Shown here: piece after piece, positions 1 to 15,500 of the stretch | Position numbering within the stretch: position 1 is the first letter of the stretch | Layout of the letters: every line of letters begins with the position of its first letter | From: an uncultured Deinococcales bacterium | GTDB lineage: Bacteria > Deinococcota > Deinococci > Deinococcales > JAAFIG01 | Assembly (NCBI GenBank): GCA_964247135.1 | Contig: CAXTTL010000112.1 | Coordinates: forward strand, 1-15,500 | Length of the DNA stretch: 15,500 bases | Direction: 5' to 3' | Notes under the pieces: generated by a model | What the model saw: the letters and a program-made list of their open reading frames with translations, nothing else | The model's database searches: none | Told to the model about the DNA's origin: nothing | Made by a program: the position numbers and the translations under genes

Positions 1-1287
1 GAGGTGCATCAGCACCACTCGGTCTTGGAGTGGTGTTTGCTGGCTGGCTCGAGCATACATCTGGTGCAGGTTGACGGCAGGTTCTTGGCTGATGATGACC
101 TCGCCGTAGCCTTGGGCGAGGAAATCGACTTTTTGCGTCTCGAGTGCGGCGCGTTGCAACTCGGCAACGATGCCCAGGGACGTGAATTTGTGGGCGTTTG
201 GGTAGAACATGTGCTCTTCGATTTCGCCGCCCGCCGCTTTGTACTGCTCGAGGGTGAACAGCGCCGATCCGAGGCTGAATTCGCTTTGCAACATCATGCC
301 GACGATGTATTCGCCGCGCATTCCCAGGTTGTAACGGTTGCCTTTGAGGAAATCGTCCTGTTTGGCGAAACTGCCGACGCTGAGGGCCTTGAGCTGCTCG
401 AGCGCGATGATGCCCTCGCGGTAGGCGGCTTTGGCGATGGGGCTGCAGTCAAAGGCCAGGGTCATCAGGGATTTGAGGGCGCTTTCGCTCATGCCGTTTT
501 GTTTGGCGAGTGTTGCCGGGGTGACGCTGGTGAGCAATTCGGCAAAGGCTTCGGCTTGGTCGAGTGGGTCAACGTCCTCGCGTCCGTTGTTTTCTTCGAT
601 GGCCAGCAAACGGGCTTGTGAGTCGTTGGCGTTGATCAACCGTGTGCCGACCAAGAAGTTCTTTGGCAGCCAATTTTGTTCTACCGCGTACTCGATGGCG
701 AGCAGTCTGCGGTAGCCGTAGATGACCAAGAACTCTCCCCTGTTCGTCGGATGTGGGCGGATTGCGATGTCGTGGCGCAATCCGGTTTTGGTAATTGACA
801 GGGCGAGTCCAACCAAGCCTTTGCGGCTGGTCTTGCGTCTGGGGTTGTTGTTGGGTTCGCTTTTGATCTTCTCGAACGGTGTCAGGACGCGGACTTCTTT
901 GAGTTTGAGAACGTTGAGCCGGTCTTTATCTTTCTTGGCAAGGGCGGCTCGTGTGACGGTGCGATTGTGGAATCGGACGATGTCGTTTTCGATGGGTGCT
1001 CGAGTCAACGCTTGGTAGACGCCATTGAAGGTGTCGAGGGCGGCTTCGTCGTCGAAGGTAAAGCCGCAAAGCAAATCCGCCTGTTCGCCGTCTTCGGGTT
1101 CGTCGAAGGGAATGGCGCTCATGCCCATGAGCCAGCCACGAAGTTCGTCACCCAGAGCTTGGTCTTCTGGGAGGTCTATCGTGCCCAGGTTTTCGTCTTC
1201 GTCGAAGGCACAGGTCAAAAGGTGCTCGAGCGCTTTTTCGGAGAGGGTTTCGAGCTGGCTGGGCAGTTTGGTTTTGGTGTGGTTCAT
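1..1287 (-). CDS. parB: ParB/RepB/Spo0J-family protein (plasmid/ICE long type) with acidic N-terminal extension; runs off the left edge
   Basis: Absent from the ORF track because it has no stop in the window. Hand translation from ATG 1287 (RBS AGGAG 4 nt upstream) is open for 429 codons: MNHTKTKLP...NNNPRRKTSRKGLVGLALSITKTGLRHDIAIRPHPTNRGEFLVIYGYRRLLAI...ARLLAIEENNGREDVDPLDQAEAFAELL...YKAAGG. NPR, GxRR (706-717) and ENxxRED are ParB CTPase-domain motifs. Confidence 0.9.
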   Translation of the reverse strand, partial: MNHTKTKLPSQLETLSEKALEHLLTCAFDEDENLGTIDLPEDQALGDELRGWLMGMSAIPFDEPEDGEQADLLCGFTFDDEAALDTFNGVYQALTRAPIENDIVRFHNRTVTRAALAKKDKDRLNVLKLKEVRVLTPFEKIKSEPNNNPRRKTSRKGLVGLALSITKTGLRHDIAIRPHPTNRGEFLVIYGYRRLLAIEYAVEQNWLPKNFLVGTRLINANDSQARLLAIEENNGREDVDPLDQAEAFAELLTSVTPATLAKQNGMSESALKSLMTLAFDCSPIAKAAYREGIIALEQLKALSVGSFAKQDDFLKGNRYNLGMRGEYIVGMMLQSEFSLGSALFTLEQYKAAGGEIEEHMFYPNAHKFTSLGIVAELQRAALETQKVDFLAQGYGEVIISQEPAVNLHQMYARASQQTPLQDRVVLMHL

Positions 1288-1301
1288 GGTGCTCCTGAAT
1301 G

Positions 1302-1327
1302 AAAAAGCCGCGTCCGAGTAGACGCGG
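1302..1327 (-). terminator. Intrinsic terminator-like hairpin immediately upstream of the parB RBS
   Basis: Minus strand reads CCGCGTC-tactcg-GACGCGG-CTTTTT: a 7-bp GC stem (1308-1314/1321-1327) followed by a T run. Confidence 0.6.
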
Positions 1328-1345
1328 TACAGAGGGCGTTGGGCT

Positions 1346-1657
1346 TTAATCTCCGAGTTCGAGGTAACTGGGGTTGGCATCGTTGTCGAGCATGGCTCGC
1401 CAGAGTTCTTGAAGATCGTCGATCTGGGCGGAGAAGGGAATCGGGTCGTCTTGGGCGATCAGCCAGACGTTGAGTTCTTTGTTGATTGGGTCAAGGCTGA
1501 AGCTGACGTCCCGCAGACCGATCGGCAAGGTGATGGTCATGGTAGCGAAGAGTAATTGACGGTGGACGGTAAACCTTTGATTGAATCCTTTCAGTTCAAG
1601 CAGTGCGTTTGAGAGGGCTTGAAAGTCGGGGTGGTCACGTGGGTTGGCTTGTTCCAT
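1346..1657 (-). CDS. Hypothetical protein (103 aa, acidic)
   Basis: ORF with RBS GAAAGGA, starting 10 nt after the helicase stop and co-oriented with its neighbours. No recognisable motif. Confidence 0.7.
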   Translation of the reverse strand: MEQANPRDHPDFQALSNALLELKGFNQRFTVHRQLLFATMTITLPIGLRDVSFSLDPINKELNVWLIAQDDPIPFSAQIDDLQELWRAMLDNDANPSYLELGD

Positions 1658-1667
1658 GGCGTCCTTT

Positions 1668-4600
1668 CTAGGCTTTACAGAGGTGGTTGGCGTCGTAAAA
1701 GGTGGTCTTTTGGTCGATGGTGAACTTGGCGATCAAACGGTTCTTGTCGTTGATGTAAAAGCCTGAGATCACCCCCTTCTTTTCGCTGTTTTTCAGGCGC
1801 ACGGCGGTGTTGACGGTGAAAATGTTGAGATCACTCATGAAGCCGCCGTGTTTGATGGCGTCCTGGTATTCGGTACCGGTCGCATCGAGCGCCTGCTTTT
1901 GATAGCGCTCGAGGGCGACCTTCAAGCGGGCGATGGTGACCTTGTCGGTTTCGGTATGACCTTTTTTGCGGCGATCCGCTTTGGCGATTGCAAGCTCGAG
2001 GTTTTGCCAGGCGGTCAGGCACAGGGCGACTTGGCGCATCTGGCTGCGTTTGTGCTCGAGCTGGTTTTCCTTGTCAATTTTGAAGCGCAAAACTTCGAGT
2101 TTGGCTCGGGCGGCGACGGGGTCCGGGGCGAGGGCGGTCAGCATGTCCTCGTATGAGAGCATCTCGGAGTTGGCGATTTCTCGGGCGTTGCTTTCAAAGA
2201 GTTGTTCGCGCCAGCTTCGTTTGCCGCGCATGATGGCGTACAAGAGTCCGTCGAGTGTGCCTTTGGCGAGCAGGACATGGACGCGAACGCTTTGGTTGGT
2301 GTTGCCCTGCCTGGCGCCGCGTCCGTTGGTTTGATCCCAGGCTCCCGGGGACGGTGGGAGATCGACGTGAATGATGTCGGTCGTGCCGTGTTGCAGGTCG
2401 CCGCCAACCCCGAGTGAACCTCGGGTGGCGATCAGGACATCAAATTGTCCGTCGTTGTAGCGGTCGATGATCTCTTGGCGTTTGGCTCCTGGGGCGCGGC
2501 TGGCGGTGACGATGGCGATTCGTGCCTTGGGGATGCCGAGGCTCTCCATCTCCTGGGCGAGCCGTTCAAAAGCGTCGGGTCCTGGGGCTTTGCGGTTGGT
2601 GCGTCTGCCGTGTTCGTCGCGTTCGGCGGGTGCGCCCCAGTCGAGGAAGCACAACACCTGTCCGCCCGTTTTGACCGCCTCGCGGCTCAGGTAGGCGGCG
2701 TAGGCGTAGCGCGGGTTGAAACTGAAATTGTCTTGGGTGAAGAATGCTGGATCGAGCGCCAGCCCGCGCATGGCACCAAACAGTCTCAGTACCTCGGTGC
2801 CCTTGTCAAAGCGCGAGGCTTGCAGCAGGGCGTTGGCCTCGTCGCGTAGTTTCGAGTAATTGGCTTCCTGCAGTTCTGAGAGGTCAAAGGCGTGCTCGTG
2901 AATTTCGATGCTTGGCATCTCGAGTCCGACCATGCTGGCGGTGGCGTGGGTGATGTAACGGTTGAGGATGCCCCTCAGTTCGTGCATGTTCTTGAAGCTG
3001 GTGACGCCCGGTCGCACGGTCAAATTCCCGGCGAAATCGGGATAGATCACCGATTCGATCACGCAAAAGCGGTCGATGAATTGCTCCGTGCCGTGGATAC
3101 CGATTTCACTGAAAGCTTCAGCGGCGATCGGTTTCAGCAGCGAGTACAGCTCGAGCGGGCTGTTGTCGGCTGGGGTGGCGGTCAGCATGAAGATTGGGGT
3201 GGCGGTGTTGTGGCTGATGCGACTGGTGTAGCGGGCTTTGACGAAATTGTCGAGCGCCCGTCCCGATTCGGCGCCCGAACCGATGAAGGCGAGTTTTTTG
3301 CCGAGCACTTGGGGGGCGATGTGCAGGTTGCGAAACACACCAGCCTCGTCGGTGATGATCGCATCGATGCCGAGGTCTTCCCAGTTGATCCCCTGAATCG
3401 GGTGCTCGACCTCGATCACGTCCATGACGTTGGATTCAAAGCGTGCCAGGTCTTTGGTGAACGAATAATCGCTTGGCTTCTTGTCCGCATTTTTGAGCTT
3501 GTGGTGTTGTTTGGTGCGGTCCAGCGCCTCATCTCGCATGACGGCTTTGAGGGTTTCGCTGCCGAGTTGGAGGCGGCGATAGGTTTCGTGGCTCATGATG
3601 CCGGCATCAAAGGCTCCGAAGCTGAGTTGCAAGAGTTTTTGGCGCATGATTTCTGGGGTGTCGTCGATGACCTGATCGCCGACCTTGGTGATGCCGATGA
3701 TGACGATCCTGCGGTGCGGCAATGGCTCGACCACCTCGCGCAAGTATTTGAGCAGCAAGGGTTTGGGGACGGGGATGGCGACCCGGCTGGCCATGCCTTT
3801 GGAGAGCAGTCCCTCGAGAATCAAACCGGCAACCAGGGTCTTTCCCAAGCCGGTGCCGAGGGCGCTGACCCCGTTGCCGCGCTCGACGCGCAGGCTCGCC
3901 TCTTGAACCTGATAACGGTGGGGCTGCATTCCGCGCCAGTGGCTGAGGTCGAGCCATTCGGTCGGCTCGAGCGCCGAGGCGATCATGTAGCGGGAATTGT
4001 ATTCGCGTTCGATTAGTTCGCGGTGCTCCAAGTCGGTGGCGACAAAGGTTGTGAAACTGGCTTTAAGCCTGGCTTGCTTTTCGAAAGCTTCGTCCATCGC
4101 AGCTTTTCGCCTGCCGAGGTATTTGGTTTTACTCATCTCTCCAGCGCCGTCGATCAGCTCGGTTTTAAACTCGAACCTCAAATATGACTCGAGCATTTTG
4201 GCGTCGCGTTCCGCCAGGGGTTTCGTGATTCGCAACGCACGGCGTTCGCTCCTGTCGACGATTGAGACGTGCCATTGCTGGTCGTATTCGGCTTTCAAGT
4301 GCGGGTATTCGGTTTCGATCCAAGCCTTGACGACGTGGCTTGGAATGAATCCCTCCCGTCCAGAGAGTTCGATGTCCTCGATGCTGCGCCACTGGGCGAT
4401 GGATTCGAGTTTGGCGATCTGTTGCTCGAGTCTGGCTTGAATGGCTGGGTTGGTGGTGGTGTGCGCCTGGGCTTGGCTGAGGGCAGAGATGTGAAAGGCG
4501 TTGCCATTGGCGTAACTGCCCCAACTTTCCCAGGTGCCATTTGGGGTGAGTGCCAAACCTTCATCCTCGAGCAGTGTTTGCAGGGCTTGGTCGTAGGACC

Positions 4601-6167
4601 ACTCGAGTGAGAACGCCACGTTTTCGGCGGTCAGGGCTTTGTGCCTGAGCAATTTGGCTTTGGTTGAATCAAAATCCCTTTCGCGCTCGAGCGTTAAGAC
4701 CTTGGGTGTGGTGAGATCGGGGCTGAGGTCACCGTTTTTGGTGATTGCGCCAGTCAAAAGGTGCAGGCGCGGTTGGGCGCGGGTCAGGATTTGAAAGGCT
4801 TCGAGCTGGTGCGGGTTGCCGTGCTGAGCCAGAAAGTCTGCCGAGGCGCTCAAGGCTTTGAGCCTTGCCTCTTCGGTGATTTCGGGCGCGGCGTTGCCGT
4901 CGCGGCGAAACTCGAAAAAACGCTCAAGCCATTGCACGGTGCTTTTTGCGACGCGCAACAAGGGTGATTCTTTGGGGGCTGGACGCCAGATGTGCGCCAA
5001 GGTCGTGCTTTGACTGGTGTACCTGGCAACGATGTCCAGAACTTTGCCGCCATGCTCGGCTCCCTGCTTTAAAGGATAACCGCGCCCTTGAAGCCGTTTG
5101 ACCGCCTCAATGCAGAGGGTTTGGACCCGTCCGTGCGCCCAATGGCTCTGCTCGAGCGCCTGATGCAGGGCACCGAAAGTCATTGGCGCTGGGCTGACCT
5201 CGAGCAGTTTGGTATGCGACATTTGGTCGCACGCCGCCTCGAGGTCGCCGTCGACGACATCCCGTCCGAAACGTGTTTCTTTGATCACACCTGCGGTCAA
5301 AAATTCTGGATGGGTCTGGAAGAATGTCCCCTGCAGGTAATCGCGCTCAAAGTTGTTGATGGCATGGGCCGCCGCGACGGCGATCGAACCGTAAGCCCGC
5401 GCCAGTTCCGCCAGAACGTCACCGACCTGCCAGGGTCGTTTCTCGAGGAACAGCACATCCGTCTCGAGTTTTGCGCCTGAGTCCTCGAAGGTCGAGTGCG
5501 GAAGTCGGTAAACGCCTCGCAACCTGGCTCGAGCCATCAACACGGCACGGTCAGCCAGGTGACGCGCACTGGAGGTATAACCGCTGGGCATGATCAGTGC
5601 CAAAATACCACCATCGTTCAGTCGATCCAAACTCGCCTCGAGAAAATACATTGGGTAATCCTCGAGGTCGGGCTTGTCATCCAATCGACGTGCCCCGCGA
5701 GCGCCAAACGGAGGGTTGCCGACGACCACGTCAAAGCGGGCGTGGGGGTCAAAATCTTCAAAGGCGCAATTGATGATTTTGGCGTCTGGGTAGAGCAGTT
5801 GGGCAATTTTGCTGGCGGTGGCATCGATCTCAACACCGGTCACCAGTTCGTTGTTGACCCAGGGGAGGAAGTTCCCGATTCCGCACGAACCCTCGAGCAC
5901 GGTGACTTGCTGGTAATGGCTGGCGATGCCCACTTTTTGCCAAATGATTCTTGCCACAAGGTCTGGCGTGTAATATTCCTGGATGGCGGCGAGCGATGCT
6001 TCACCGCTTCCGGCTTGCAGGCTGCCGCGACCGGTGTAACGACGCAGGATTTCGCGCTGCTCGGGGCTGAGTTCGGTTCCAAGACTCAAGGTGTTTGCCA
6101 ATTGGCTGGCTTGTGCGTTGGCGTCGAGCCGCTGATGCCTGGTGTGCGGAGTTTCCTGATGCAGCAT
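1668..6167 (-). CDS. DarB-like fusion: N6-adenine DNA methyltransferase + SNF2-type SF2 helicase (1499 aa)
   Basis: MTase motifs: EYYTP, LEGSCGIGNF (SAM-binding motif I), GVEID, VVGNPPFG (motif IV, 5706-5717), YRLPHSTF, TDVLFLEKR. Helicase motifs: GTGLGKT (Walker A), ITDEAG (Walker B), LTATPADNSPLE (motif III), QTNGRGARQGN (motif VI). RBS GAAAGG. This architecture is typical of phage P1 DarB-like proteins on MGEs. Confidence 0.9.
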   Translation of the reverse strand: MLHQETPHTRHQRLDANAQASQLANTLSLGTELSPEQREILRRYTGRGSLQAGSGEASLAAIQEYYTPDLVARIIWQKVGIASHYQQVTVLEGSCGIGNFLPWVNNELVTGVEIDATASKIAQLLYPDAKIINCAFEDFDPHARFDVVVGNPPFGARGARRLDDKPDLEDYPMYFLEASLDRLNDGGILALIMPSGYTSSARHLADRAVLMARARLRGVYRLPHSTFEDSGAKLETDVLFLEKRPWQVGDVLAELARAYGSIAVAAAHAINNFERDYLQGTFFQTHPEFLTAGVIKETRFGRDVVDGDLEAACDQMSHTKLLEVSPAPMTFGALHQALEQSHWAHGRVQTLCIEAVKRLQGRGYPLKQGAEHGGKVLDIVARYTSQSTTLAHIWRPAPKESPLLRVAKSTVQWLERFFEFRRDGNAAPEITEEARLKALSASADFLAQHGNPHQLEAFQILTRAQPRLHLLTGAITKNGDLSPDLTTPKVLTLERERDFDSTKAKLLRHKALTAENVAFSLEWSYDQALQTLLEDEGLALTPNGTWESWGSYANGNAFHISALSQAQAHTTTNPAIQARLEQQIAKLESIAQWRSIEDIELSGREGFIPSHVVKAWIETEYPHLKAEYDQQWHVSIVDRSERRALRITKPLAERDAKMLESYLRFEFKTELIDGAGEMSKTKYLGRRKAAMDEAFEKQARLKASFTTFVATDLEHRELIEREYNSRYMIASALEPTEWLDLSHWRGMQPHRYQVQEASLRVERGNGVSALGTGLGKTLVAGLILEGLLSKGMASRVAIPVPKPLLLKYLREVVEPLPHRRIVIIGITKVGDQVIDDTPEIMRQKLLQLSFGAFDAGIMSHETYRRLQLGSETLKAVMRDEALDRTKQHHKLKNADKKPSDYSFTKDLARFESNVMDVIEVEHPIQGINWEDLGIDAIITDEAGVFRNLHIAPQVLGKKLAFIGSGAESGRALDNFVKARYTSRISHNTATPIFMLTATPADNSPLELYSLLKPIAAEAFSEIGIHGTEQFIDRFCVIESVIYPDFAGNLTVRPGVTSFKNMHELRGILNRYITHATASMVGLEMPSIEIHEHAFDLSELQEANYSKLRDEANALLQASRFDKGTEVLRLFGAMRGLALDPAFFTQDNFSFNPRYAYAAYLSREAVKTGGQVLCFLDWGAPAERDEHGRRTNRKAPGPDAFERLAQEMESLGIPKARIAIVTASRAPGAKRQEIIDRYNDGQFDVLIATRGSLGVGGDLQHGTTDIIHVDLPPSPGAWDQTNGRGARQGNTNQSVRVHVLLAKGTLDGLLYAIMRGKRSWREQLFESNAREIANSEMLSYEDMLTALAPDPVAARAKLEVLRFKIDKENQLEHKRSQMRQVALCLTAWQNLELAIAKADRRKKGHTETDKVTIARLKVALERYQKQALDATGTEYQDAIKHGGFMSDLNIFTVNTAVRLKNSEKKGVISGFYINDKNRLIAKFTIDQKTTFYDANHLCKA

Positions 6168-6186
6168 GGGTGCCTTTCATGACATG

Positions 6187-6211: not shown

Positions 6212-6243
6212 GGTGGACAACTTTTGTTGTGATTGGCTACTGT

Positions 6244-6507: not shown

Positions 6508-6530
6508 GATATATTCCTCGAGTTTGAATT

Positions 6531-7198: not shown

Positions 7199-7212
7199 GA
7201 TAACCTCCTTTG

Positions 7213-7269: not shown

Positions 7270-7271
7270 GA

Positions 7272-8244: not shown

Positions 8245-8290
8245 AATTTGATCAGACTCGAGCTGTTTCAGCCGCGAGTCTGATCAAATT
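8245..8290. repeat. Perfect 16-bp inverted repeat with an inner 4-bp stem
   Basis: AATTTGATCAGACTCG (8245-8260) / CGAGTCTGATCAAATT (8275-8290); the spacer contains GCTG-ttt-CAGC. Confidence 0.9.
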
Positions 8291-8298
8291 CGCAATTT

Positions 8299-8760
8299 TC
8301 AATTTGAAAAGTGGTTTCCAACGTCTTCAAACGTCGGACCGGGTGTCACCAATGTGTCTGGACCGTTTTGGCTTGCCGAACTTGGCGCGTGGATTACAAG
8401 ACCAAAAATGATGTTATTGGCATACATGCCCAAGTATTTTTTGGTTGTCTTGGCGTACCCTGCCACTGCTGGAGCAGCACGGTCGCACCAGGCTTCCATT
8501 TGCACCGAGTCACCGATTTCAAGATCAGGTGATTTGATATTGATTGTGGCGATGTCTCCAGGGCTTGAAATTTGACTTGTTTTCAGCGCAAATGACTTTC
8601 CGCGAACCGTGATGGTGGCTCACAAACCACCAACACAGACGCACGAGCCATCATGTTGAAGTTGAACTTGCAATTCTTGAATTGGCTTGTTGTCACAGGC
8701 ACTCAAGACCAACGTGCCGCAAAATGCAGCAAGCAAAAAGCTTTTATTGGGTTTTTTCAA
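8299..8760 (-). pseudogene. Small lipoprotein (153 codons) interrupted by one in-frame TGA at 8620-8622
   Basis: TTG start at 8760 with RBS AAAGGAG. Signal peptide and lipobox MKKPNKSFLLAAFCGTLVLSA-C. The frame continues ...SCVCVGGL*ATITVRGKSFALKTSQISSPGDIATINIKSPDLEIGDSVQMEAWCDR... into ORF 8299..8505 with no frameshift. Confidence 0.7.
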
Positions 8761-10561
8761 AATAAAACACTCCTTTGGCAAGTCCTTCAATTGTTGCCAT
8801 ATTATATTCGTGGTTGACCATCGGTGTCGTTGGGAAAAAGAAACTACCAGAATGTTGGAAGATACTCGGATCATCAACAGGCGTGATCCACGCCTGTTGT
8901 ACGGCACCCCAGACGATTCGGTACTTGAGAATCGCCGAGTAATGCGGTCCACTTAAGGCATCGGCTTGGGTCGGATAGAGTGCAAGCACCATGTTGTCAC
9001 GCGCACCTACATGTTCGTTGATGATGCTCCCAATCGAATAGCTGTAATCATAAAGCGTGTATGCGCCGTAGAGTGGGATGGCGTTAACCAGTGGTGTGAT
9101 CCACCTTGAACGCATGACAAGTGATGAGCTTCCAGGATTGAGGCTGTAATTGGCTTTTTGATTGGCAAGCCAGCGCTCTCCACCACCTTGGACATCCCAC
9201 GGATTGGTTGCTTCGCCCAGCGCGGTGGTGCTGAAAAAATAAACTGGGTATGGCAGTGTGTAGGCGGCAATCTCGGGTGAACGGTTGGCGTCGAGTTTGA
9301 CCATTCGCTGCGCAAACGAATCCTGTGACCATTTTTTGTAATAGCCAACGACCTTATCGATCCCGGTTGAATAATCTTTTTGCGTTATTGGCAGGCTTGT
9401 ATTGCCCTCATAAATCACGGCGTTGGGGTTGTTGGGGTCAAAAACGCGGTAGTACATTGGCGGGTCATTTCGTGAAGCCATGTTGTAAAAATTGGCGTTG
9501 CGGTAACGCCACCACCACCAAGCCAGTGTCACAAAGCCTTCAGTACCACATGAGAGCAATTTGTAACCGTTGACATTCCAGTCGGAGCTGATGCCATAGT
9601 CACTGGCATATTGTCCGTAGCCGCCACCTGGTACTTTTGAATTTGAGAGTGCTCCGTAGGTGGTAGCGTCGCAGACTTGCCACCACAGAAACCACCAGCA
9701 TTCCGCCCCTGTACCTGTGACCACGCGGGTAGTGGGGTGTGCGGCATTCACCAAAGTACCAGTGTTCACCCCTCGAGCTTGTGTCACTGTAACGGCTTTG
9801 CTGAGATTCAAATTGCCGTCCGAGCGCATGAAGTCACCCATGTTAAGGCTTGCCCCTCGGGTTTTGGTGCTCTGGGGATCAAGCATTTCATCCCATGCTT
9901 TTTCGACTGAATCGTAGAGTTTGGTTTCTTTGCTGAGTGTTGTTCGGGCTTCGTTTTCTTGGGATGTCCACTTTTGAACCTGTTCGGCACTGGCCAGGGT
10001 TGGCGTGTCTCCTACGATCCAAACCTCGCCGTTTTTGGACTCCAGAAAGAGGTCAAATCCCCCCTGGAGGCTAATGATGCGTTTCAAATTTTGGCGTCCA
10101 CCGAATTTGGTGAGCGTATTTTGGAGTTGTGACAACAGGCTGAGGTCGTGGCTAAGGGCATAGGCGACCGTTCGACCGGTCGATGCGCCAGTGATGACGG
10201 TCATGGTTGCGGGATCACTGGAACTGATTTGATCAGGTGTGAGCGCCAACGGGTCTTCGACAGGGAATGCGGTGGTGAAATTAACATAGGTAAATGGACG
10301 TCCATGAAAATCTTCTGTCAGCAACGAACCAATGTGCATGTCCGCACGCGTTCGCACTCCACGTTGGGAGGCTTGCAAGAGGCTGATCGCTTGACCAGCC
10401 ACTTTTGGCACGAGCCTGGCATGATCGAGCGGATCAGGAATTGCTGTCAGGCTGTTTCCGCAACCTGACAGCGAGATGCCGAGTACCGCTAGCCCGAGTC
10501 CAATCAGTGTAGTTCGTGTGTGTCTAATAATTTTTGAACGTGTGAAACGATTTACATTCAT
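8744..10561 (-). CDS. Large lipoprotein (605 aa) with probable C-terminal papain-like (C39/C10-type) cysteine peptidase domain
   Basis: Start moved to ATG 10561 (RBS AAGGAG). Basic N-region, then LIGLGLAVLGISLSG-C lipobox. The C-terminal half has LSCGTEGFVTLAWWW (Cys at a helix start), SGPHYSAILKY (His) and ITPVDDP (Asp) in papain order. CDS and lipoprotein calls are secure; the peptidase call is by eye. Confidence 0.7.
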   Translation of the reverse strand: MNVNRFTRSKIIRHTRTTLIGLGLAVLGISLSGCGNSLTAIPDPLDHARLVPKVAGQAISLLQASQRGVRTRADMHIGSLLTEDFHGRPFTYVNFTTAFPVEDPLALTPDQISSSDPATMTVITGASTGRTVAYALSHDLSLLSQLQNTLTKFGGRQNLKRIISLQGGFDLFLESKNGEVWIVGDTPTLASAEQVQKWTSQENEARTTLSKETKLYDSVEKAWDEMLDPQSTKTRGASLNMGDFMRSDGNLNLSKAVTVTQARGVNTGTLVNAAHPTTRVVTGTGAECWWFLWWQVCDATTYGALSNSKVPGGGYGQYASDYGISSDWNVNGYKLLSCGTEGFVTLAWWWWRYRNANFYNMASRNDPPMYYRVFDPNNPNAVIYEGNTSLPITQKDYSTGIDKVVGYYKKWSQDSFAQRMVKLDANRSPEIAAYTLPYPVYFFSTTALGEATNPWDVQGGGERWLANQKANYSLNPGSSSLVMRSRWITPLVNAIPLYGAYTLYDYSYSIGSIINEHVGARDNMVLALYPTQADALSGPHYSAILKYRIVWGAVQQAWITPVDDPSIFQHSGSFFFPTTPMVNHEYNMATIEGLAKGVFYFEKTQ

Positions 10562-10619
10562 AAAACGACTCCTTCCCCTAAGCGGGTGGTCGTAAGGTAA
10601 CATTGGTCGATCAGTTAAC

Positions 10620-10635
10620 TTGAGGAAAGTTCACT
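10620..10635. repeat. 16-bp direct repeat, copy 1 (TTGAGGAAAGTTCACT)
   Basis: Exact match to 11766-11781; intergenic. Confidence 0.85.
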
Positions 10636-10674
10636 CGAGCAACGAAGTCTTAAGAATTAGCCCTCATGTAAAGC

Positions 10675-10959: not shown

Positions 10960-11423
10960 TGCAAAACCTCGCTTACGAGTTGCAATGCTGTCACTCGTGG
11001 GCGAGTTGGAATGCCTTTGAAGGTATTTTCCTCCCAATTGCTTGAGAACGAAAATTCCGCCAAGAGTTTCTCGAGCGTTAACACCCGAAGTTCGGCTTTC
11101 TCACATTTGGCACGCAATCCTCTGTTTTCTGTTTCCAAGTCAAAAATGGTACGTCGCAATAAGGCTGGGTTTTCATCGGGATTGTCATCCGAATTATCGT
11201 CAAAATCAACGATTGACTGGCACTTTTGGCAATCAGCACTGACTCCGAATTGAAAGTCTTTTGATTGTAGCTTGCTGTTTTCAATTTGCTCCAGAATTAA
11301 CCCCTGTGCGGTGTAATGCTCGAGTTTTTTAGTATTTTCAGTGGGGATCACACCAACCAAAATACTCGTGCCACAATCGGGGCATTTGATGTTGTTGACC
11401 AAGAGATTTGGTTCTCTGTACAT
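10956..11423 (-). CDS. Zinc-ribbon (CPDC...CQKC) + coiled-coil hypothetical protein (155 aa)
   Basis: ATG 11423 with AAAGGAAG RBS; two CxxC pairs, an acidic linker, then the heptad-like IFDLETENRGLRAKCEKAELRVLTLEKLL. Confidence 0.65.
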   Translation of the reverse strand: MYREPNLLVNNIKCPDCGTSILVGVIPTENTKKLEHYTAQGLILEQIENSKLQSKDFQFGVSADCQKCQSIVDFDDNSDDNPDENPALLRRTIFDLETENRGLRAKCEKAELRVLTLEKLLAEFSFSSNWEENTFKGIPTRPRVTALQLVSEVLQ

Positions 11424-11450
11424 TTTGCGAACTTCCTTTCGATTTGAAGC

Positions 11451-11484
11451 AAAAGTGGTTGTTCTCAAGATTGAGAACAACCAC
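11451..11484 (-). terminator. 14-bp perfect inverted repeat + T run (terminator-like hairpin or palindromic operator)
   Basis: GTGGTTGTTCTCAA (11455-11468)-GA-TTGAGAACAACCAC (11471-11484), followed by TTTT on the minus strand. Confidence 0.6.
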
Positions 11485-11485
11485 A

Positions 11486-11502
11486 CAAGCCCGAGGGGCT
11501 TG
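11486..11502. repeat. 7-bp GC-rich hairpin directly after the 51-aa ORF stop
   Basis: CAAGCCC-gag-GGGCTTG. Confidence 0.7.
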
Positions 11503-11505
11503 ACG

Positions 11506-11661
11506 CTATCCGTACAACAGACGTTGGATTTCTTGATCGGTCACAGTGGTATCAATCTGAGCATTTTGGGCATGAATTTGGGTTGTGAACGATTCAACTT
11601 GAGACTCGAGTACCTGATGCCAGCTTGATTGACCGCAGTACCATACTTTTAACCAGACCAT
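11506..11661 (-). CDS. Small hypothetical protein (51 aa)
   Basis: ATG 11661 with RBS AAAGGAG 4 nt upstream; MVWLKVWYCGQSSWHQVLESQVESF... Confidence 0.6.
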   Translation of the reverse strand: MVWLKVWYCGQSSWHQVLESQVESFTTQIHAQNAQIDTTVTDQEIQRLLYG

Positions 11662-11765
11662 AAAACTCCTTTGCCAGTTGTATTGATCGCAGCCAGCGAT
11701 CTGAACCGAGATTCGCGAGTTCAAACACTGGTCTGGTTGATGTTAATTGGTGCTCGAGTTTCGAG

Positions 11766-11781
11766 TTGAGGAAAGTTCACT
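11766..11781. repeat. 16-bp direct repeat, copy 2
   Basis: Exact match to 10620-10635; intergenic. Confidence 0.85.
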
Positions 11782-11787
11782 TTAAGT

Positions 11788-12588
11788 TTAGGTTGCTATG
11801 CTTAGATTTTTTTTTCGATTCCAATCCATACCATCAAAAACATAGGTTTGACCACCGATTTGTTTTTCATCACCTTGAAACAATTTACGTTGACGCCATG
11901 CTTTTTCTTCAGCAGGTGTTGCTCGGTAACTGCCCGCCAAGGTTGGCATTGCAAACGACACTCGAGCCAAGTGAATGAAGTAGTTAAATTCGGTGATTGA
12001 AAGGTCAAAAAAATTCTTTTCTTCATTGATGACTGCGTGTTTGAGCACGCCTGTATTGTTGTAGTACAAATACGGACTTCGCTTTTCATTGACGAGCATT
12101 TCAACAAATTCACTTTGATGCAAGGTCGTGCCTTGGTATTTAATCAGTCGTGTCAGGTGTTTGGCGATCTTGCCTCGAGTCATTGGTGTCATGTCTTTTA
12201 AGTATTCGTCAAGTTTTGGATTGCCAGTGCTTAATTCTGGTTTTAGGGGTTTATTCCTTTTTGCTACCAATGGTGCAGGAATGGCATTCCCTGACCAGTT
12301 GGACAAGCACTCAGCAATTTCTTTATCTTTTCGCGGCAACGTGACGCCCGTTTCCCGTTCGAACGCTGCTCGAGTTACTTTGTTTCCGACGTGAAGCATT
12401 CCGCCTAGGGTTGCGTTGTCCTTGGTATCAATTGCTGCGATTATTTTTTCGGCAAGCGGGAGATTTTTGCCAGGGAAAGCCGAGATTTTATCTATTTCAG
12501 CGGCAAGCGTTTCGATTCGAGGATCAAGTATGAGCTTCTCGGCAAACTTTTCACCGAGCACTTCTTTTTGCATGTTTGTCAGTTCCAT
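11788..12588 (-). CDS. Hypothetical protein (266 aa)
   Basis: ATG 12588 in a TGATG overlap with the upstream stop; RBS AAAGGAG; long ORF in an AT-rich region. Confidence 0.8.
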   Translation of the reverse strand: MELTNMQKEVLGEKFAEKLILDPRIETLAAEIDKISAFPGKNLPLAEKIIAAIDTKDNATLGGMLHVGNKVTRAAFERETGVTLPRKDKEIAECLSNWSGNAIPAPLVAKRNKPLKPELSTGNPKLDEYLKDMTPMTRGKIAKHLTRLIKYQGTTLHQSEFVEMLVNEKRSPYLYYNNTGVLKHAVINEEKNFFDLSITEFNYFIHLARVSFAMPTLAGSYRATPAEEKAWRQRKLFQGDEKQIGGQTYVFDGMDWNRKKNLSIAT

Positions 12589-12821
12589 CAAAATACTCCT
12601 TTCGATCTAAAAAATTCGTTTTCGTGTGCCCAAGAACCCTCAAAAGGCGCGTTGGTGTACGGTAAATCTTTGGCTTTTCGCGCCCTAACGTATTTGGCAT
12701 GGGCAAGCTTGGCGGCGGCGACAACGGCGTTAAATTCTGCCATGTGAGGTGCTCGAGCGGCTTTCATGCGTGCCAGAAATTCTGCATCACTTTCTGTTTT
12801 GGATCTCGATAAAACGCTCAA
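12588..12821 (-). CDS. Hypothetical basic, Ala-rich protein (about 77 aa)
   Basis: Probable TTG start at 12821 after AAAGGCGG; fills the gap between coupled neighbours. Start uncertain. Confidence 0.55.
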   Translation of the reverse strand: MSVLSRSKTESDAEFLARMKAARAPHMAEFNAVVAAAKLAHAKYVRARKAKDLPYTNAPFEGSWAHENEFFRSKGVF

Positions 12822-12843
12822 ACGTCTACCGCCTTTCGTTTGG

Positions 12844-14037
12844 TCAATCAACAAGCCGCAATACCGTTCCAAATGGGAACCTGTCATCATCCGCACCACC
12901 GGCAATCACCACCCAGACGGTTTCAAATTCTGTTTCCTGGGGAAACGTGCCGTACCCATCGGTGAGGTAAATGACAATTCGTTCACCGAAGGGGTCAAAG
13001 TTGTCTTGCTCGCGCTCGAGCATGTCAAAGAATGGACAAAAGTTTGTGCCACCGCCACCTTTGGGCGGCTCGAGACTTTCCCAGTTTTCAAACGGGTACG
13101 GTCCGTACACGGCGGCATCGGCGTAACTGATGCGGGCTTTGACCTCTGGGTAACTTTGCAAGATGCCTTGAATTTCACTGAGCATCGTGTTCATGTGCTC
13201 ATCGCTGATGCTGCCGCTGGTGTCGATGCAAATATCGACGGTGACGCTGATGCCGTCCAGCGCATCGATGTACATTCCTCGAGAGAAAAAGCGGCGATCA
13301 AAGCCGACGAAATCCACCGGGCGGCGCGAAACAAGTCGTGCCAGAGCGTCGCGCCAAGGAATTTGTGGTTCAGTGAGCAGCCCGAATTCCCTTAACAGAC
13401 CTGCTGGCATGGTGCCTTGGGTTTTGGATTGCTGGGCGACGACTTTGGCATTGCCGACAGCGCCTTTCCAGTATTGTTGGAGGTTTTTGGGTCTGCCCCC
13501 TTGACTTGAGCCTTCAGTGTTTTCGTCACCCGATTGACCGTTTTCCGTGCCTGGTGTGCCTGGTGTGCCTGGTGCGGGTCGGTTTCCAGAATCGGCTTGA
13601 TCTGGAGGTTCGAGCAGATCAGGCGGCACCAGTTGATTGTTTTGTTGCTGCTCCAGAATGCAATAAATTTCTTCGACGCTGAGGTGCTCGAGTTCGGGCA
13701 TTCGGATGGCATCGTCTGGCAGTTGGAATTGAGGGTAGCTGGCAATGATGCCGTTGACGACCACATCCGCCGCGACGTTCCAGTTTTCTTTTTTTCGTGC
13801 TCTGCGCCTGATGGTGTGATTGAAGGCGGCGTGCAACAGCAGGTGCAGTATGGTGGCGTCTCGGGTCGATTTTTCAAAGTTTAAAAACGTTCTTGGCTCA
13901 AGGTAGAGCACAAAACCGTCCGTTTGATGGTCTTGTCCTTGTACGATTTTGACGAACAGGCTTAAAACCGCGAAGAACGGCACGTGAAAACGAAGTCTGA
14001 CCAAAGTGCCTTTGATGGCTTGTTCAAAGTCGCTCAA
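12844..14037 (-). CDS. DUF2201-type metallopeptidase-like + VWA domain protein (MoxR partner)
   Basis: N-terminal TDG, HLLLHAAFNH and WNVAADVVVN; low-complexity linker; IPWRDAL; VWA MIDAS motifs IDTSGSI, GGGGTNF and IYLTDGYG. TTG start overlaps the upstream stop. Confidence 0.9.
   Translation of the reverse strand: MSDFEQAIKGTLVRLRFHVPFFAVLSLFVKIVQGQDHQTDGFVLYLEPRTFLNFEKSTRDATILHLLLHAAFNHTIRRRARKKENWNVAADVVVNGIIASYPQFQLPDDAIRMPELEHLSVEEIYCILEQQQNNQLVPPDLLEPPDQADSGNRPAPGTPGTPGTENGQSGDENTEGSSQGGRPKNLQQYWKGAVGNAKVVAQQSKTQGTMPAGLLREFGLLTEPQIPWRDALARLVSRRPVDFVGFDRRFFSRGMYIDALDGISVTVDICIDTSGSISDEHMNTMLSEIQGILQSYPEVKARISYADAAVYGPYPFENWESLEPPKGGGGTNFCPFFDMLEREQDNFDPFGERIVIYLTDGYGTFPQETEFETVWVVIAGGADDDRFPFGTVLRLVD
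13547..13573. repeat. 9-bp tandem repeat (GTGCCTGGT)x3
   Basis: Encodes PGT PGT PGT in the low-complexity linker of the VWA protein. Confidence 0.85.
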
Positions 14038-14402
14038 GGTTGTCCCCCGATTAAAGTTTTGGTGCGGAGCGTTCCGTACCTGAGTTTGAATGCGCCACCA
14101 ATTTTGGCAATGCCTCGAATTTCACGCCAGTGTTCAATCAGCTTGCCATTGACCTCGCGCAATTTCACATGCCGCAGCGGATTGGGCAAGCCCAGGGCGT
14201 TGTGGTGTTGTTGCTCGAGTTGGTCGATGCGAGTGGTGTGTTCTTTGATTTTGAGGGCATCCAGGTTGGCTTCCATGGCAAGGATCATTTCCAAGTAATC
14301 GGCATCGGCTCGGGCACGTTCAAAAATTCCCTTCCAGCGTGGATCGTCGGGTTCGGCTTGTCTTGGCTTGACTGGCGAGATCGGCACAGTTAATTTAGGC
14401 AT
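14034..14402 (-). CDS. Hypothetical protein (122 aa)
   Basis: Overlaps both neighbours (13 nt and 4 nt) in the AAA-VWA operon. Confidence 0.7.
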   Translation of the reverse strand: MPKLTVPISPVKPRQAEPDDPRWKGIFERARADADYLEMILAMEANLDALKIKEHTTRIDQLEQQHHNALGLPNPLRHVKLREVNGKLIEHWREIRGIAKIGGAFKLRYGTLRTKTLIGGQP

Positions 14403-14674
14403 TTTGACCCCGTTTTGACGTCTGGCATGGTGTAAACCCGAGACTCACCGATATTTTGTTTTGGGTCATTCTCGAGATCGCTGAGGAAGGTTTCGGGCAA
14501 TGAAATTCGCAACGTTTCCAAGGTTGCTTTCAACTGTTCAAAGCCGATTGCCCACAAATTCAGTTTGAGGTCATAGGATTTGCGGATTGGATTCCACTCG
14601 CCGACCACAAAAGTCATCGACTCGTTTTGACGGACTGAAAACAGGCGTTGGCTCGACTGATCTTCCTCGTTCAT
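14390..14674 (-). CDS. Hypothetical protein (94 aa)
   Basis: ATGA overlap with the ATPase stop; GAGGAG RBS. Confidence 0.7.
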   Translation of the reverse strand: MNEEDQSSQRLFSVRQNESMTFVVGEWNPIRKSYDLKLNLWAIGFEQLKATLETLRISLPETFLSDLENDPKQNIGESRVYTMPDVKTGSKCLN

Positions 14675-15500
14675 TTTAGCTCCTCGAGCATTTCTTGGGC
14701 TTCACGCATCAAGCCCTGAAGGTGCGGGTGACGCGTCAGAGCGGGGCGCAACTCGGCGACATAGCGTTGTCGCGCGTCGGCTTTGAGGCTTCTGAGAAAG
14801 CTCGAGGCGATGAATTGGCGTTGTTCACCGTTTTGAACCCATTTGGTGGCATGTCCAAGTTCATCGGGCGTTTTGATGTGGATGAACAACTGCGTAGAGA
14901 CGGCGTATTGCATCTCGAGTCGGCTCGGGTATTCCGCCAAACTGTTGCCGCGAAGGATGGCAGCGACATCGGGAAGGTCGGCGCAGACGTTGACGTAGGC
15001 TTCAAAGGCATCGCAGGCGGTCTTGCCAACGGCGTGTTCGATTGAAACCCCTGCCGCATAGAGTTTGTTGGCGACAGACCAAGACCTGGGGCTGGGCCAG
15101 GCTGGTTGTTTCTTGTCAAGCACATGAATTAAGGCGGGCATGAAGTTTAGAAAACCGATGATCAGCGGATTCCAACCCGCGCCGATGGCGTAGGCTGTCA
15201 GGCTTTCGCGCTCTGTAGTGACCTCGAAGTGTACGAACCTGTTGGCGAGTGGTGCCGGCATTTCTGCCACGGCGGCGGTGTCCTCTTTGCGGTTGCCTGC
15301 CGCCCAAATGAACCAGCCGTCTGGGACTTCGTAATTGCCGACCTTGCGGTCCAGAATCAATTGCTGGGCGATGCCTTGCGTGGCTGGGGCGGCCATGTTC
15401 ATCTCGTCCAGGAACAAGATGCCTTGACCGCTGCGCGGCAGGAATTCTGGTGGGAACCATTTGCTGATGCCGTCTTCGGGCACGGGTAAACCTCGCAGGT
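14671..15500 (-). CDS. MoxR-family AAA+ ATPase (5'-truncated by the window edge)
   Basis: The frame is open to the edge (LRGLPVP...). Motifs: WFPPEFLP, Walker B ILFLDEMN, QLILDR, sensor-1 AAGNR, Arg finger PLANRF, PSPRSW. Walker A lies outside the window. Confidence 0.9.
   Translation of the reverse strand, partial: LRGLPVPEDGISKWFPPEFLPRSGQGILFLDEMNMAAPATQGIAQQLILDRKVGNYEVPDGWFIWAAGNRKEDTAAVAEMPAPLANRFVHFEVTTERESLTAYAIGAGWNPLIIGFLNFMPALIHVLDKKQPAWPSPRSWSVANKLYAAGVSIEHAVGKTACDAFEAYVNVCADLPDVAAILRGNSLAEYPSRLEMQYAVSTQLFIHIKTPDELGHATKWVQNGEQRQFIASSFLRSLKADARQRYVAELRPALTRHPHLQGLMREAQEMLEELK

Follow-up and report, generated by a model that had tools for sequence, protein, structure and literature searches.

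How did the hexamer CTCGAG come to be so abundant in a 15,500-nt stretch of DNA from an uncultured Deinococcales bacterium (the whole stretch is hereafter called the window), and what keeps it there? An earlier note on this DNA had counted about 55 copies against about 4 expected, beginning at position 48, ending at 14914 and including nine between 5151 and 5897. An exact search returned 55 sites (3.55 per kb; span 48..14919) and reproduced all of these positions. In 200 dinucleotide-preserving shuffles of the window the expected number was 3.34 (sd 1.63, maximum 8), none of the shuffles reached 55, and the excess is about sixteen times chance.

Relative to the minus-strand ORFs, 40 sites lie in the CTC-GAG (Leu-Glu) frame, nine in the xCT-CGA-Gxx frame (including the site at 48, hand-checked as A-R-A) and one in the xxC-TCG-AGx frame. 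The remaining five are intergenic:

6517..6522, intergenic CTCGAG
8257..8262, intergenic CTCGAG
10634..10639, intergenic CTCGAG
11605..11610, intergenic CTCGAG, missing from the earlier list
11753..11758, intergenic CTCGAG

This 40/10/5 division agrees with the earlier description of sites in the Leu-Glu frame, in other frames and in intergenic gaps, which had named four of the five intergenic copies.

Since 73% of window sites (40/55) fall in the Leu-Glu frame, the excess might follow from codon, dipeptide, CpG or TCGA composition. We therefore shuffled synonymous codons within each ORF, leaving protein sequence and codon usage unchanged; a dicodon-preserving shuffle is unsuitable, as it retains in-frame CTC-GAG pairs by construction. 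Over 500 shuffles, the window ORFs were expected to hold 9.8 +/- 2.7 sites (maximum 21) but contain 50, which upholds the claim that codon bias is insufficient. Applied to the ORFs of the whole genome, the same procedure gave 3,913 +/- 22 sites compared to 27,984 observed. TCGA/CpG bias, an alternative named in the earlier note, is excluded genome-wide: 33,925 of 54,606 TCGA tetramers lie within CTCGAG, while the 15 other NTCGAN words have only 121-2,188 copies each, making them at least 15-fold rarer. CTCGAG is also denser in non-coding DNA (7.4 per kb) than in coding DNA (6.5 per kb). Together with the dinucleotide shuffle, these results reject each form of compositional bias as the cause and leave this explanation a negligible probability. 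A larger repeat or MITE bearing the hexamer was rejected as well: flanks are near random, extension of the palindrome is at chance level, and the window has no repeat family past the hexamer itself.

A genome-wide and family-wide word

CTCGAG is the commonest hexamer of the 5.09-Mb host genome, with 33,925 copies (6.7 per kb, or about one per 150 bases), and is about 25-fold more frequent than its one-mismatch neighbours. The window shows its roughly sixteen-fold excess because the host carries the word about every 150 bases throughout its genome; the bias belongs to the host rather than to the element, as the earlier note had proposed. None of 825 windows of 5 kb held fewer than eight sites, and the longest site-free gap was 2.6 kb. 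Counts per 5-kb window were over-dispersed (variance 62.7, mean 33.3).

Genome ORFs, called with a crude longest-ORF caller, contain CTCGAG in all three frames: 17,104 as CTC-GAG, 6,482 as xxC-TCG-AGx and 4,398 as xCT-CGA-Gxx. The effect extends to the proteins. Leu-Glu dipeptides number 22,282, compared to 9,359 expected (2.4-fold), whereas the reverse pair, Glu-Leu, stands at 1.01 times expectation, and 76.8% of Leu-Glu pairs are encoded by CTCGAG. Other Leu-Glu codon pairs have given way to CTCGAG, and the proteome has gained about 13,000 Leu-Glu dipeptides through it.

The same signature was present in all 18 other genomes of this uncultured Deinococcales family, which span five genera and carry 4.3-6.8 sites per kb. 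All family genomes are metagenome bins, 57-94% complete, from which composition-based binning could have dropped CTCGAG-poor contigs. Eleven loci from 'Deinococcales bacterium' MAGs had 6.47 sites per kb, whereas 69 loci from other taxa had 0.097. Enrichment is weaker in other families of the order, and the phylum presents a graded series in which Deinococcus-like genomes avoid CTCGAG, several genera carry 1-3.6 per kb and the host family carries 4.3-6.8. A Meiothermus-like relative has 2-3 sites per kb. In genus g7, of the same order, CTCGAG is avoided, with 26-1,010 copies in each genome. The statement in the earlier note that some Deinococcota show such a bias fits this picture: the host belongs to that phylum, and its sister families are more weakly enriched. 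A primer-type motif search found no 16S rRNA in the assembly.

The immediate surroundings of the sites carry little further signal. Flanks are not extended (G at -1 in 39%, C at +6 in 38%), and the pair-distance spectrum to 400 bases, a simple test unlike the published HIP1 method, revealed only the 3-base coding period and no helical or longer periodicity. Between genes, density is 8.8 per kb in convergent, 8.3 in tandem and 7.2 in divergent spacers; near stop codons it is 8.1 per kb, compared to about 6.3 inside genes. The excess between convergent genes and near stop codons is too slight to assign CTCGAG a terminator or regulatory role. It would also be expected if the self-complementary CUCGAG, any two copies of which are able to pair, shaped mRNA folding or stability. 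However, divergent spacers are almost as dense, gene starts show no clear depletion, the palindrome extends past six bases only as often as by chance, and nothing in these data is specific to one RNA structure; a role at the RNA level is highly improbable.

Conservation, loss and gain of sites

Over 219 kb aligned to a genome of the same genus (G005), CTCGAG was kept at 1,295 of 1,634 positions (79.3%), compared to a mean of 45.9% for all hexamers, and ranked first among 1,442. Conservation exceeded coding constraint in every frame. The third base of CTC was kept in 805 of 847 cases (95%) before GAG, versus 217 of 343 (63%) before other Gnn codons; TCG within CTCGAG was kept in 288/303 cases (control, 422/595) and CGA in 151/177 (control, 179/295). 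Intergenic sites were kept in 124 of 165 cases (75%), compared to 45.3% for intergenic hexamers generally. CTCGAG is preserved as a six-base DNA unit, in all frames and between genes, far past what coding requires. Positional conservation, a check proposed in the earlier note, is thus seen, and the HIP1-like kind of signal that it had suggested is apparent in the genome-wide distribution, the occupation of every frame and of non-coding DNA, and this conservation past codon constraint. A 20-kb region of contig C1 is poorly conserved within the genus.

A three-way comparison of G000, G005 and G004 by parsimony (63 kb, in a few syntenic blocks of one genus) yielded 522 ancestral sites; sites were lost 159 times and gained 31 times, and 70 cases were ambiguous. 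Loss by a single transition occurred at 84 of 9,396 opportunities (0.89% per position per branch), compared to a background of 4.17%, and gain from the six transition neighbours at 10 of 222 (4.5%). Loss of existing sites runs about fivefold below background, and the formation of new ones is close to the background mutation rate; therefore, CTCGAG is slowly eroding in the host genus. A three-way replicate in genus g5 comprised just 3.7-4.8 kb of alignment.

The preponderance of losses, the background rate of gain and the resemblance of one-step neighbours to decay products could all be read as a relic, the sites being left over from an ancestral burst and now serving no function. Retention at synonymous and intergenic positions contradicts this, as does the rank of CTCGAG as the most conserved hexamer, and we regard a pure relic as very unlikely. 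Simple per-site selection, conversely, predicts from the suppression of losses that gains should run at about 2.8-fold background, whereas we observed about 1.1-fold, from only 10 events. The missing excess may reflect survivorship, the remaining near-sites perhaps being those where proteins cannot tolerate Leu-Glu, or the maintaining force may be other than ordinary selection.

A fragment of a plasmid-like element

Five genes of the window, all on the minus strand, were examined individually:

1..1380, minus strand: ParB-like protein gene running past the contig end (phrog_3264, ParB-like partition protein, 4.6e-18; weak Pfam ParB_N match below cut-off); 6 CTCGAG
1668..6167, minus strand: DarB-like fusion of an N6-adenine methyltransferase and an SNF2 helicase, 1499 aa (Eco57I, N6_Mtase, SNF2-rel_dom, Helicase_C); 21 CTCGAG, 4.67 per kb
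8744..10603, minus strand: 619-aa ORF, no family match in Pfam or PHROG profile searches; 1 CTCGAG, 0.54 per kb
12844..14037, minus strand: DUF2201 gene, putative metallopeptidase plus VWA-like domain (DUF2201_N, 9.9e-21; DUF2201, 1.1e-13; phrog_1314); 4 CTCGAG
14671..15498, minus strand: ATPase gene, truncated at the contig end (phrog_1297, ATPase, 3.2e-54; no Pfam match); 3 CTCGAG

The 1499-aa protein matches phrog_11801 at 1e-168 and phrog_10089, a DarB-like antirestriction family; its relatives include proteins of Deinococcus megaplasmids, DarB-like proteins of Thermus phages and P1 DarB, to which it is 25-30% identical. Gene order in the window resembles a module of the Deinococcus proteolyticus plasmid pDEIPR02, where an AAA ATPase occupies the position of the window's ATPase gene. 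Stretches homologous to that gene in other family genomes show 69-76% DNA identity. The ParB-like, DarB-like, DUF2201 and ATPase genes, together with this synteny, are those of a plasmid or phage-plasmid backbone and mark the window as a piece of a plasmid-like element, consistent with the mobile element that the earlier note had assumed. A circular contig was rejected, as genes are cut at both ends and terminal overlap is absent; no replication gene was recognized in the window. A look-up of public sequencing runs listed none that contains the window.

CTCGAG density in the window is about half that of the host, fifth lowest among 297 contigs, and its 5-kb pieces fall at the 3.5-4.5th percentile. 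GC content was rejected as the reason. The longest site-free stretch in the window (8256-9771; 1515 bases, the 18th longest in the genome) involves the 619-aa ORF. Other low-density contigs carry genes for a replication initiator, ParA, VirD4/TraG, a VirB4-like protein, TrbC pilin and primase.

The homologous pDEIPR02 module has no CTCGAG in 20.3 kb, and a relative of the DarB-like gene from another genus shares eight site positions with it (out of 21 and 26). As the rate at which new sites appear is only about that of background mutation, the element must be a long-term resident of the lineage, as had been claimed.

Candidate enzymes, known systems and a lineage-wide word

Could methylation account for the word? 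An orphan CTCGAG methyltransferase might mark the sites, with methyl-directed or very-short-patch repair creating and restoring them. The host genome contains about 11 DNA methyltransferase genes, and 18 of the 19 family genomes carry genes of the D12 class. Very-short-patch repair has a precedent in the Dcm/Vsr system of E. coli (CCWGG), where the bias is small. As there, a methylated palindrome can become commoner than its one-off neighbours if repair keeps restoring it, but the effect at CTCGAG is about 25-fold and none of the 19 family genomes yielded a Vsr.

A search of five Pfam methyltransferase classes (PF00145, PF01555, PF02384, PF07669 and PF02086) plus TaqI_C found no conserved orthologous methyltransferase common to the family genomes examined (bins 57-94% complete), a search blind to non-orthologous enzymes of the same specificity, which is unreadable from sequence. 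When five genomes from five genera were compared, no C5 methyltransferase was found in G008 and no beta-class enzyme in the single-contig genome G011, and gamma-class matches belonged to unrelated groups. D12 genes form at least four groups in the family. Group A was rejected as the cognate enzyme, being present in just 5 of 12 family genomes plus genus g6 of another family; it adjoins a 366-aa ORF that has no family assignment but 1,961 homologues and probably encodes a nuclease. Group B was rejected because its identity between genera (83%) exceeds that within a genus (75%), a pattern from which we infer that it is probably mobile. The C36 methyltransferase is sporadic across the order and was likewise set aside. 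Among potential repair and nuclease partners, which were either not found or sporadic, TaqI_C was found in just 3 of 9 genomes and MutH in 1 of 10; the XhoI nuclease family (PF04555) was missing from the host genome, but a control search of 14 genomes also returned none, making this result uninformative. Moreover, loss transitions are about equally suppressed at all three position pairs of CTCGAG (29, 25 and 30 events) and not solely at a methylatable base. The methylation link proposed in the earlier note is therefore not supported by the genes found, and we place coupling of this type on the unlikely side. In its favor, HIP1 and alternate HIPs are generally accompanied by a methyltransferase that acts on the palindrome or on its core (PMC4390886), and bioRxiv 10.64898/2026.06.24.734251 reports CTCGAG to be methylated in some hot-spring genomes.

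XhoI/PaeR7I-type restriction-modification systems recognize the same six bases. Their target is expected to be avoided or neutral, and genus g7 avoids CTCGAG as expected where such enzymes act; enrichment in the host family is the opposite.

A second possibility is a 'self' tag for uptake and recombination, raised by molecular drive: competence machinery would prefer DNA containing CTCGAG, and recombination would replace alleles that had lost it. Known tags, the USS of Pasteurellaceae such as Haemophilus and the DUS of Neisseriaceae such as Neisseria, are 9-12 bases long, non-palindromic and present about once per kb. Like these, CTCGAG is a short lineage-wide word that is enriched in coding and in non-coding DNA alike, with an even distribution across both, and is scarce in foreign DNA; the whole family has it, sister families have it in weaker form, and the lineage's plasmids carry it as well. 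The genome encodes a Thermus-type PilC (666.7 bits; the curated cut-off is 700), relatives of which at 93-97% identity occur in Deinococcales bacterium MAGs. However, CTCGAG does not have the form of an uptake sequence, being a palindrome of only six bases that lacks extended flanks and is about 10 times denser than USS or DUS, and drive should also raise gains, which are at background. In Thermus, DNA uptake is described as independent of sequence, and we know of no uptake specificity in Deinococcota. An uptake tag is quite unlikely by these measures, even with the same role recently proposed for HIP1 (PMC13756078; bioRxiv 10.1101/2024.09.10.611283).

The closest known parallel is HIP1 (GCGATCGC) of cyanobacteria, also a short GC-rich palindrome that is hyper-abundant genome-wide, in genes and spacers, and conserved past codon constraint. 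HIP1 is an octamer, from a different phylum, and is reported to be 15- to 300-fold over-represented (PMC5861425). HIPs occur about once per kb (PMC4390886), compared to about 6.7 per kb for CTCGAG, and the effect of CTCGAG on the proteome is clear (Leu-Glu, 2.4-fold). HIP1 spacing is described as quasi-periodic and its cognate methyltransferases as DmtA and DmtC in PMC13756078; CTCGAG has no periodicity other than three bases, and family searches found no conserved cognate methyltransferase, the feature by which the HIP1 case is defined. Hyper-abundance, presence in all frames and non-coding DNA, and conservation are thus shared with the HIP class, whereas a conserved cognate enzyme and quasi-periodic spacing were not found in these searches. 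The phenomenon is not bound to a single word, since in some lineages another GC-rich palindrome replaces HIP1 (Elhai 2015, PMC4390886). Each such alternate HIP has a specific methyltransferase according to the same source, and none was seen for CTCGAG. The main text of PMC4390886 does not contain CTCGAG, and the limited literature collection that we searched gave no prior description of its hyper-abundance.

Together, these results lead us to favor, at a probability of roughly 0.55, a reading in which the host lineage has left its imprint on a resident plasmid-like element, in the form of the 55 window sites, and CTCGAG acts as a DNA-level recognition word that is defended against loss. A stronger process in an ancestor would have built the excess. 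Today, a putative lineage-specific, probably dimeric protein, suggested by the pattern of sites, would read CTCGAG along the whole genome; it may mark or handle 'self' DNA in uptake and recombination, nucleoid organization or modification. Site loss would then be selected against, and incoming DNA would acquire sites slowly, so that site density would report residence time in the lineage. On such a scale, the window and the other contigs of plasmid or conjugation type would be placed by a density that is about half that of the chromosome. More tentatively, CTCGAG could be a lineage-wide 'self' word whose putative reader is independent of any conserved methyltransferase: an ancestral burst would have raised it to one per 150 bases, rewriting about 13,000 dipeptides, and it would now be only defended, with a weaker form across most of the order and avoidance in Deinococcus-like genomes.

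HIP1 has lacked a settled explanation for three decades, and most clues have come from one phylum. In Deinococcota, a signal of this kind has arisen independently and is stronger, with a hexamer every 150 bases and visibly reshaped proteins. The graded series within the phylum allows a comparative test of methylation-directed repair, uptake tagging and chromosome organization, and the absence of a shared methyltransferase, if upheld, argues that hyper-abundant palindromes need not be methylation-driven. Within genomes of the host family, site density separates chromosomal from plasmid DNA and flags recently acquired genes. If CTCGAG is indeed read as a 'self' word, the HIP phenomenon would have originated a second time, independently and at higher density, and site density would give a usable clock of how long mobile DNA has resided in these hosts.

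CTCGAG abundance in the window, its host genome and the phylum

The window contains exactly 55 CTCGAG sites, agreeing in number and position with the count of about 55 in the earlier note, while 200 dinucleotide-preserving shuffles gave a mean of 3.34 and a maximum of 8. All credible genes of the window lie on the minus strand; relative to their ORFs, 40 sites are read as CTC-GAG (Leu-Glu), nine as xCT-CGA-Gxx and one as xxC-TCG-AGx, and five are intergenic. Synonymous codon shuffling within each ORF gave 9.8 ± 2.7 sites (maximum 21 in 500 trials), versus 50 observed in ORFs. Leu-Glu pairs were themselves more frequent than expected (61 versus 34.6), and 40 of the 61 are spelled CTCGAG. The excess in the window is genuine and much larger than chance would give.

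The host assembly (G000, of which the window forms the whole of contig C112) comprises 5.09 Mb in 386 contigs, with 84% completeness and 1.8% contamination. It holds 33,925 copies of CTCGAG (6.7 per kb), in all frames and in non-coding DNA, which bears out the claim of a host-wide process resembling that of HIP1, the highly iterated palindrome of cyanobacteria. The next-commonest hexamers reach less than half this count and are themselves CTCGAG overlaps. A general TCGA bias does not explain the enrichment: 62% of the 54,606 TCGA tetramers lie within CTCGAG, and the other fifteen NTCGAN words have only 121 to 2,188 copies each. Bases flanking the sites are almost random, and extension of the palindrome past six bases was no more frequent than chance.

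Using a crude longest-ORF caller (4,210 ORFs), we found 6.5 sites per kb in coding and 7.4 in non-coding DNA of this genome. The ORFs contain 27,984 sites compared to 3,913 ± 22 after synonymous shuffling, distributed as 17,104 CTC-GAG, 6,482 xxC-TCG-AGx and 4,398 xCT-CGA-Gxx. The effect extends to the proteome, in which Leu-Glu occurs 22,282 times versus 9,359 expected (Glu-Leu, 1.01-fold); CTCGAG encodes 76.8% of these pairs, versus 11% expected from codon usage. Density is nearly even over the genome: each of 825 5-kb windows has at least 8 sites, no gap between sites in the assembly exceeds 2.6 kb, and convergent, divergent and tandem intergenic regions carry 8.8, 7.2 and 8.3 sites per kb, respectively. 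Sites rise slightly near stop codons, gene starts are not clearly depleted, and the spacing of sites showed a three-base period only.

Other palindromes are avoided in the same genome. GAGCTC, which is CTCGAG reversed, has no copy there (approximately 864 expected) and none in the window; the remaining GRGCYC words are nearly absent (GAGCCC 6, GGGCTC 4, GGGCCC 1), GGCC has only 380 copies, and numerous further palindromes of six bases fall 10- to 150-fold short of expectation (CGTACG 5, CCGCGG 11, GCATGC 17, GGATCC 7, CGATCG 47). The lack of GAGCTC means that no two CTCGAG sites abut (spacing 6, 0 cases). Pairs at spacing 8 are also rare (11 cases), which we attribute by inspection to the several avoided palindromes contained in GAGNNCTC.

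A PilC gene on host contig C2 scored 666.7 bits with the Thermus-type PilC model, whose cut-off is slightly higher (700 bits). Its relatives (93-97% identity; 64-67% in other genera) are labelled Deinococcales, in keeping with the assignment of the host to the Deinococcota. Eleven loci so labelled averaged 6.47 CTCGAG per kb, compared to 0.097 in 69 loci of other taxa. All 18 other genomes of the host's family (f1; five genera) had 4.3-6.8 sites per kb, a range reached by none of 160 further sampled genomes of the phylum. Genera outside the family were intermediate (g9, approximately 0.8-1 per kb; g13, g21 and g22, 2-3.4 per kb) or, in the large Deinococcus-like genus g7, avoided the word (26-1,010 copies per genome).

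In samples of 18-60 kb from five outside genomes, CTCGAG was 5- to 14-fold more frequent than other NTCGAN words (27-fold in the host) and exceeded synonymous shuffles 1.5- to 3.3-fold (host, 7.4-fold). Non-coding DNA of these genomes carried 1.2-3.7 sites per kb and Leu-Glu was 1.16- to 1.62-fold enriched; the host values in the same comparison were 8.6 per kb and 2.6-fold. These genomes carry the same bias, real but weaker, and family f1 is its extreme, in agreement with the statement in the earlier note that the bias occurs in some Deinococcota. Within one order, g7 strongly avoids CTCGAG (down to 26 copies in a genome of 2.9 Mb) and family f1 has it in hyper-abundance, which suggests that enzymes recognizing the word recur across the phylum.

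Conservation, gain and loss of sites

We aligned 219 kb of a genome from the same genus (G005, approximately 85% identical) to the host genome. CTCGAG was unchanged at 1,295 of 1,634 positions (79.3%), whereas hexamers overall were kept at 45.9% on average and one-mismatch neighbors of CTCGAG at 41.1%; it ranked first among the 1,442 hexamers that occur 60 times or more. Synonymous positions, at which protein constraint is removed, behaved in the same way. The third base of CTC (Leu) was kept in 805 of 847 cases before GAG versus 217 of 343 before other G-starting codons, and for GAG the figures were 809 of 863 following CTC and 282 of 370 following any other codon ending in C. In the minor frames, TCG within sites was kept in 288 of 303 cases (controls, 422 of 595) and CGA in 151 of 177 (controls, 179 of 295). 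Intergenic CTCGAG was retained at 124 of 165 positions, compared to 45.3% for intergenic hexamers generally. Retention above controls at both synonymous and intergenic positions shows that it is the six-base word itself that is constrained, and that the sites are actively preserved.

A three-way comparison of the host, G005 and a third genome of the genus (G004) covered 63 kb, with each change assigned by parsimony to the odd-one-out lineage. It yielded 522 ancestral sites, 159 losses (40, 50 and 69 in the three lineages), 31 gains (13, 6 and 12) and 70 ambiguous changes; losses stay ahead, 159 to 101, even if all ambiguous changes are counted as gains. Loss by a single transition occurred at 0.89% per position per branch (84/9,396), approximately 4.7-fold below the background transition rate of 4.17% per site per branch, and was evenly spread, with 29, 25 and 30 events at the three pairs of positions. 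Gain from the six transition neighbors proceeded at the background rate (10/222, 4.5%). Among host Leu-Glu codon pairs, those two or three changes from CTCGAG were most depleted and one-step neighbors were not, which fits one-step neighbors being decay products rather than sources. Our reading, drawn by parsimony from a few syntenic blocks of one genus, is that the excess stems from a stronger past process and that the sites are now defended and slowly eroding.

A plasmid-like element at half the host density

Genes are cut at both ends of the window and its termini do not overlap, indicating that it is a fragment. Besides a ParB-like protein, a DUF2201 protein (metallopeptidase and VWA-like domains) and an ATPase, it encodes the following:

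1668-6167, minus strand: 1499-aa DarB-like protein with Eco57I/N6_Mtase and SNF2 helicase domains
8744-10603, minus strand: 619-aa ORF

The 1499-aa protein matches phrog_11801 (DNA methyltransferase, 1e-168) and phrog_10089 (DarB-like antirestriction), and is 25-30% identical over approximately 90% of its length to phage P1 DarB, DarB-like proteins of Thermus phages and large Deinococcus megaplasmid proteins. On pDEIPR02, a plasmid of Deinococcus proteolyticus (locus L227), the order is ParB genes first, then an AAA ATPase and a VWA protein, and immediately downstream of these a large helicase-related protein. The ATPase, DUF2201/VWA and DarB-like genes of the window (1668-6167 and 12844-15498) keep this order, with the ParB-like gene on the opposite side. 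Judged by gene order and homology, the three genes seem to form a conserved module of Deinococcota plasmids that serves anti-restriction or establishment; its individual proteins also match phage families.

At 3.55 sites per kb, the window is fifth lowest among the 297 host contigs longer than 5 kb, and its three 5-kb pieces fall at the 3.5-4.5th percentile of the 825 genome windows. GC content does not account for this rank. Several of the other lowest-density contigs (2.6-3.6 per kb) likewise represent parts of plasmids or of conjugation loci:

C42: replication initiator, ParA, SSB and a second DUF2201 gene
C75: VirD4/TraG, VirB4-like ATPase and TrbC pilin
C137: primase and ParB
C289: ParB HTH domain

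Since the poorest contigs carry replication and partition genes of plasmids together with genes for type IV conjugation, plasmid and chromosome can be told apart by site density in this bin.

The pDEIPR02 module (20.3 kb, 61% GC) has no CTCGAG, and none of the 8 Leu-Glu pairs in its large gene is so spelled. A relative of the element in G007, a family member of another genus (46-64% protein identity), carries 6.5 sites per kb, the level of its own genome. Window and relative share 8 site positions in the large gene (of 21 and 26) and 3 in the DUF2201 gene (of 4 and 9). Because new sites arise only at about the mutation rate, the 55 sites of the window imply long residence in CTCGAG-rich hosts, as the earlier note had argued. 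The half-strength density of the window agrees with a residence that was shorter or interrupted, or with movement between hosts of lower density. The 619-aa ORF, for which no Pfam or PHROG family was found, has one CTCGAG in 1.86 kb and contains the 1.5-kb site-free stretch of the window; it may be cargo acquired after the backbone genes.

Methyltransferases, known systems and the likely basis of the bias

The host genome has approximately eleven DNA methyltransferase genes; candidates for a CTCGAG enzyme lie on contigs C14, C178, C36, C207/C4, C320 and C169. We searched for C5, beta-class and two gamma-class enzymes in five genomes of five genera, including the single-contig G011, and for D12-class enzymes in all 19 family f1 genomes. 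C5 enzymes were not found in G008 nor beta-class enzymes in G011, and the gamma-class matches fell into unrelated groups. D12 genes occurred in 18 of 19 genomes but formed at least four groups. The best-spread of these (group A) was found in 5 of 12 family genomes, and g6 was the single genus beyond the family in which it was found. The methyltransferase on host contig C36 was sporadic, TaqI_C occurred in 3 of 9 and MutH in 1 of 10 family genomes, and Vsr in 0 of 19. A search for the XhoI nuclease family is uninformative, since neither the host nor any of the 14 genomes of the control search gave a match. In this survey of incomplete bins, no methyltransferase group was common to the family genomes examined; specificity is unreadable from sequence, and enzymes of different descent could recognize the same word. 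The proposed methylation link is unsupported.

Group A lies alone in G011 and G007 and beside a conserved 366-aa ORF in G005 and G016 (L215:5752-6945 and L226:5812-6909), which overlaps the end of the methyltransferase gene. The two copies of this ORF are 55% identical and have 1,961 homologues elsewhere, several labelled Chloroflexi or Anaerolineales; belonging to no known family, it is probably an uncharacterized type II restriction nuclease. The g6 copy of group A (G168:C1:902908-903884) is apparently in two pieces and may be a decaying gene. Some methyltransferase genes contain no CTCGAG (G000:C189:4856-5632, the sole C5 gene of G011, G008:C114 and G009:C66) in genomes averaging 4-7 per kb, which fits recent acquisition.

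The closest known case is that of HIP1 and the alternate HIPs, other palindromes in its place, in cyanobacteria; for HIP1, phylogenetic regression has been used to relate the abundance of the word to the presence of gene families (PMC13756078). CTCGAG resembles HIP1 in its hyper-abundance, its presence in all contexts and its conservation, but differs in word length, phylum, density and a clear effect on the proteome. It also lacks two HIP features, periodic spacing and a conserved methyltransferase, the defining companion of HIP1, none being evident in family f1. CTCGAG has no occurrence in the main text of the alternate-HIP paper (PMC4390886) and appears among the methylated motifs of hot-spring genomes in a preprint, where it is listed with no mention of its abundance (bioRxiv 10.64898/2026.06.24.734251). 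We found no prior report of its hyper-abundance in the literature searched.

The most likely mechanism is that a protein specific to this lineage reads the palindrome genome-wide: sites would first have built up in an ancestor, and purifying constraint would then have kept those that existed.
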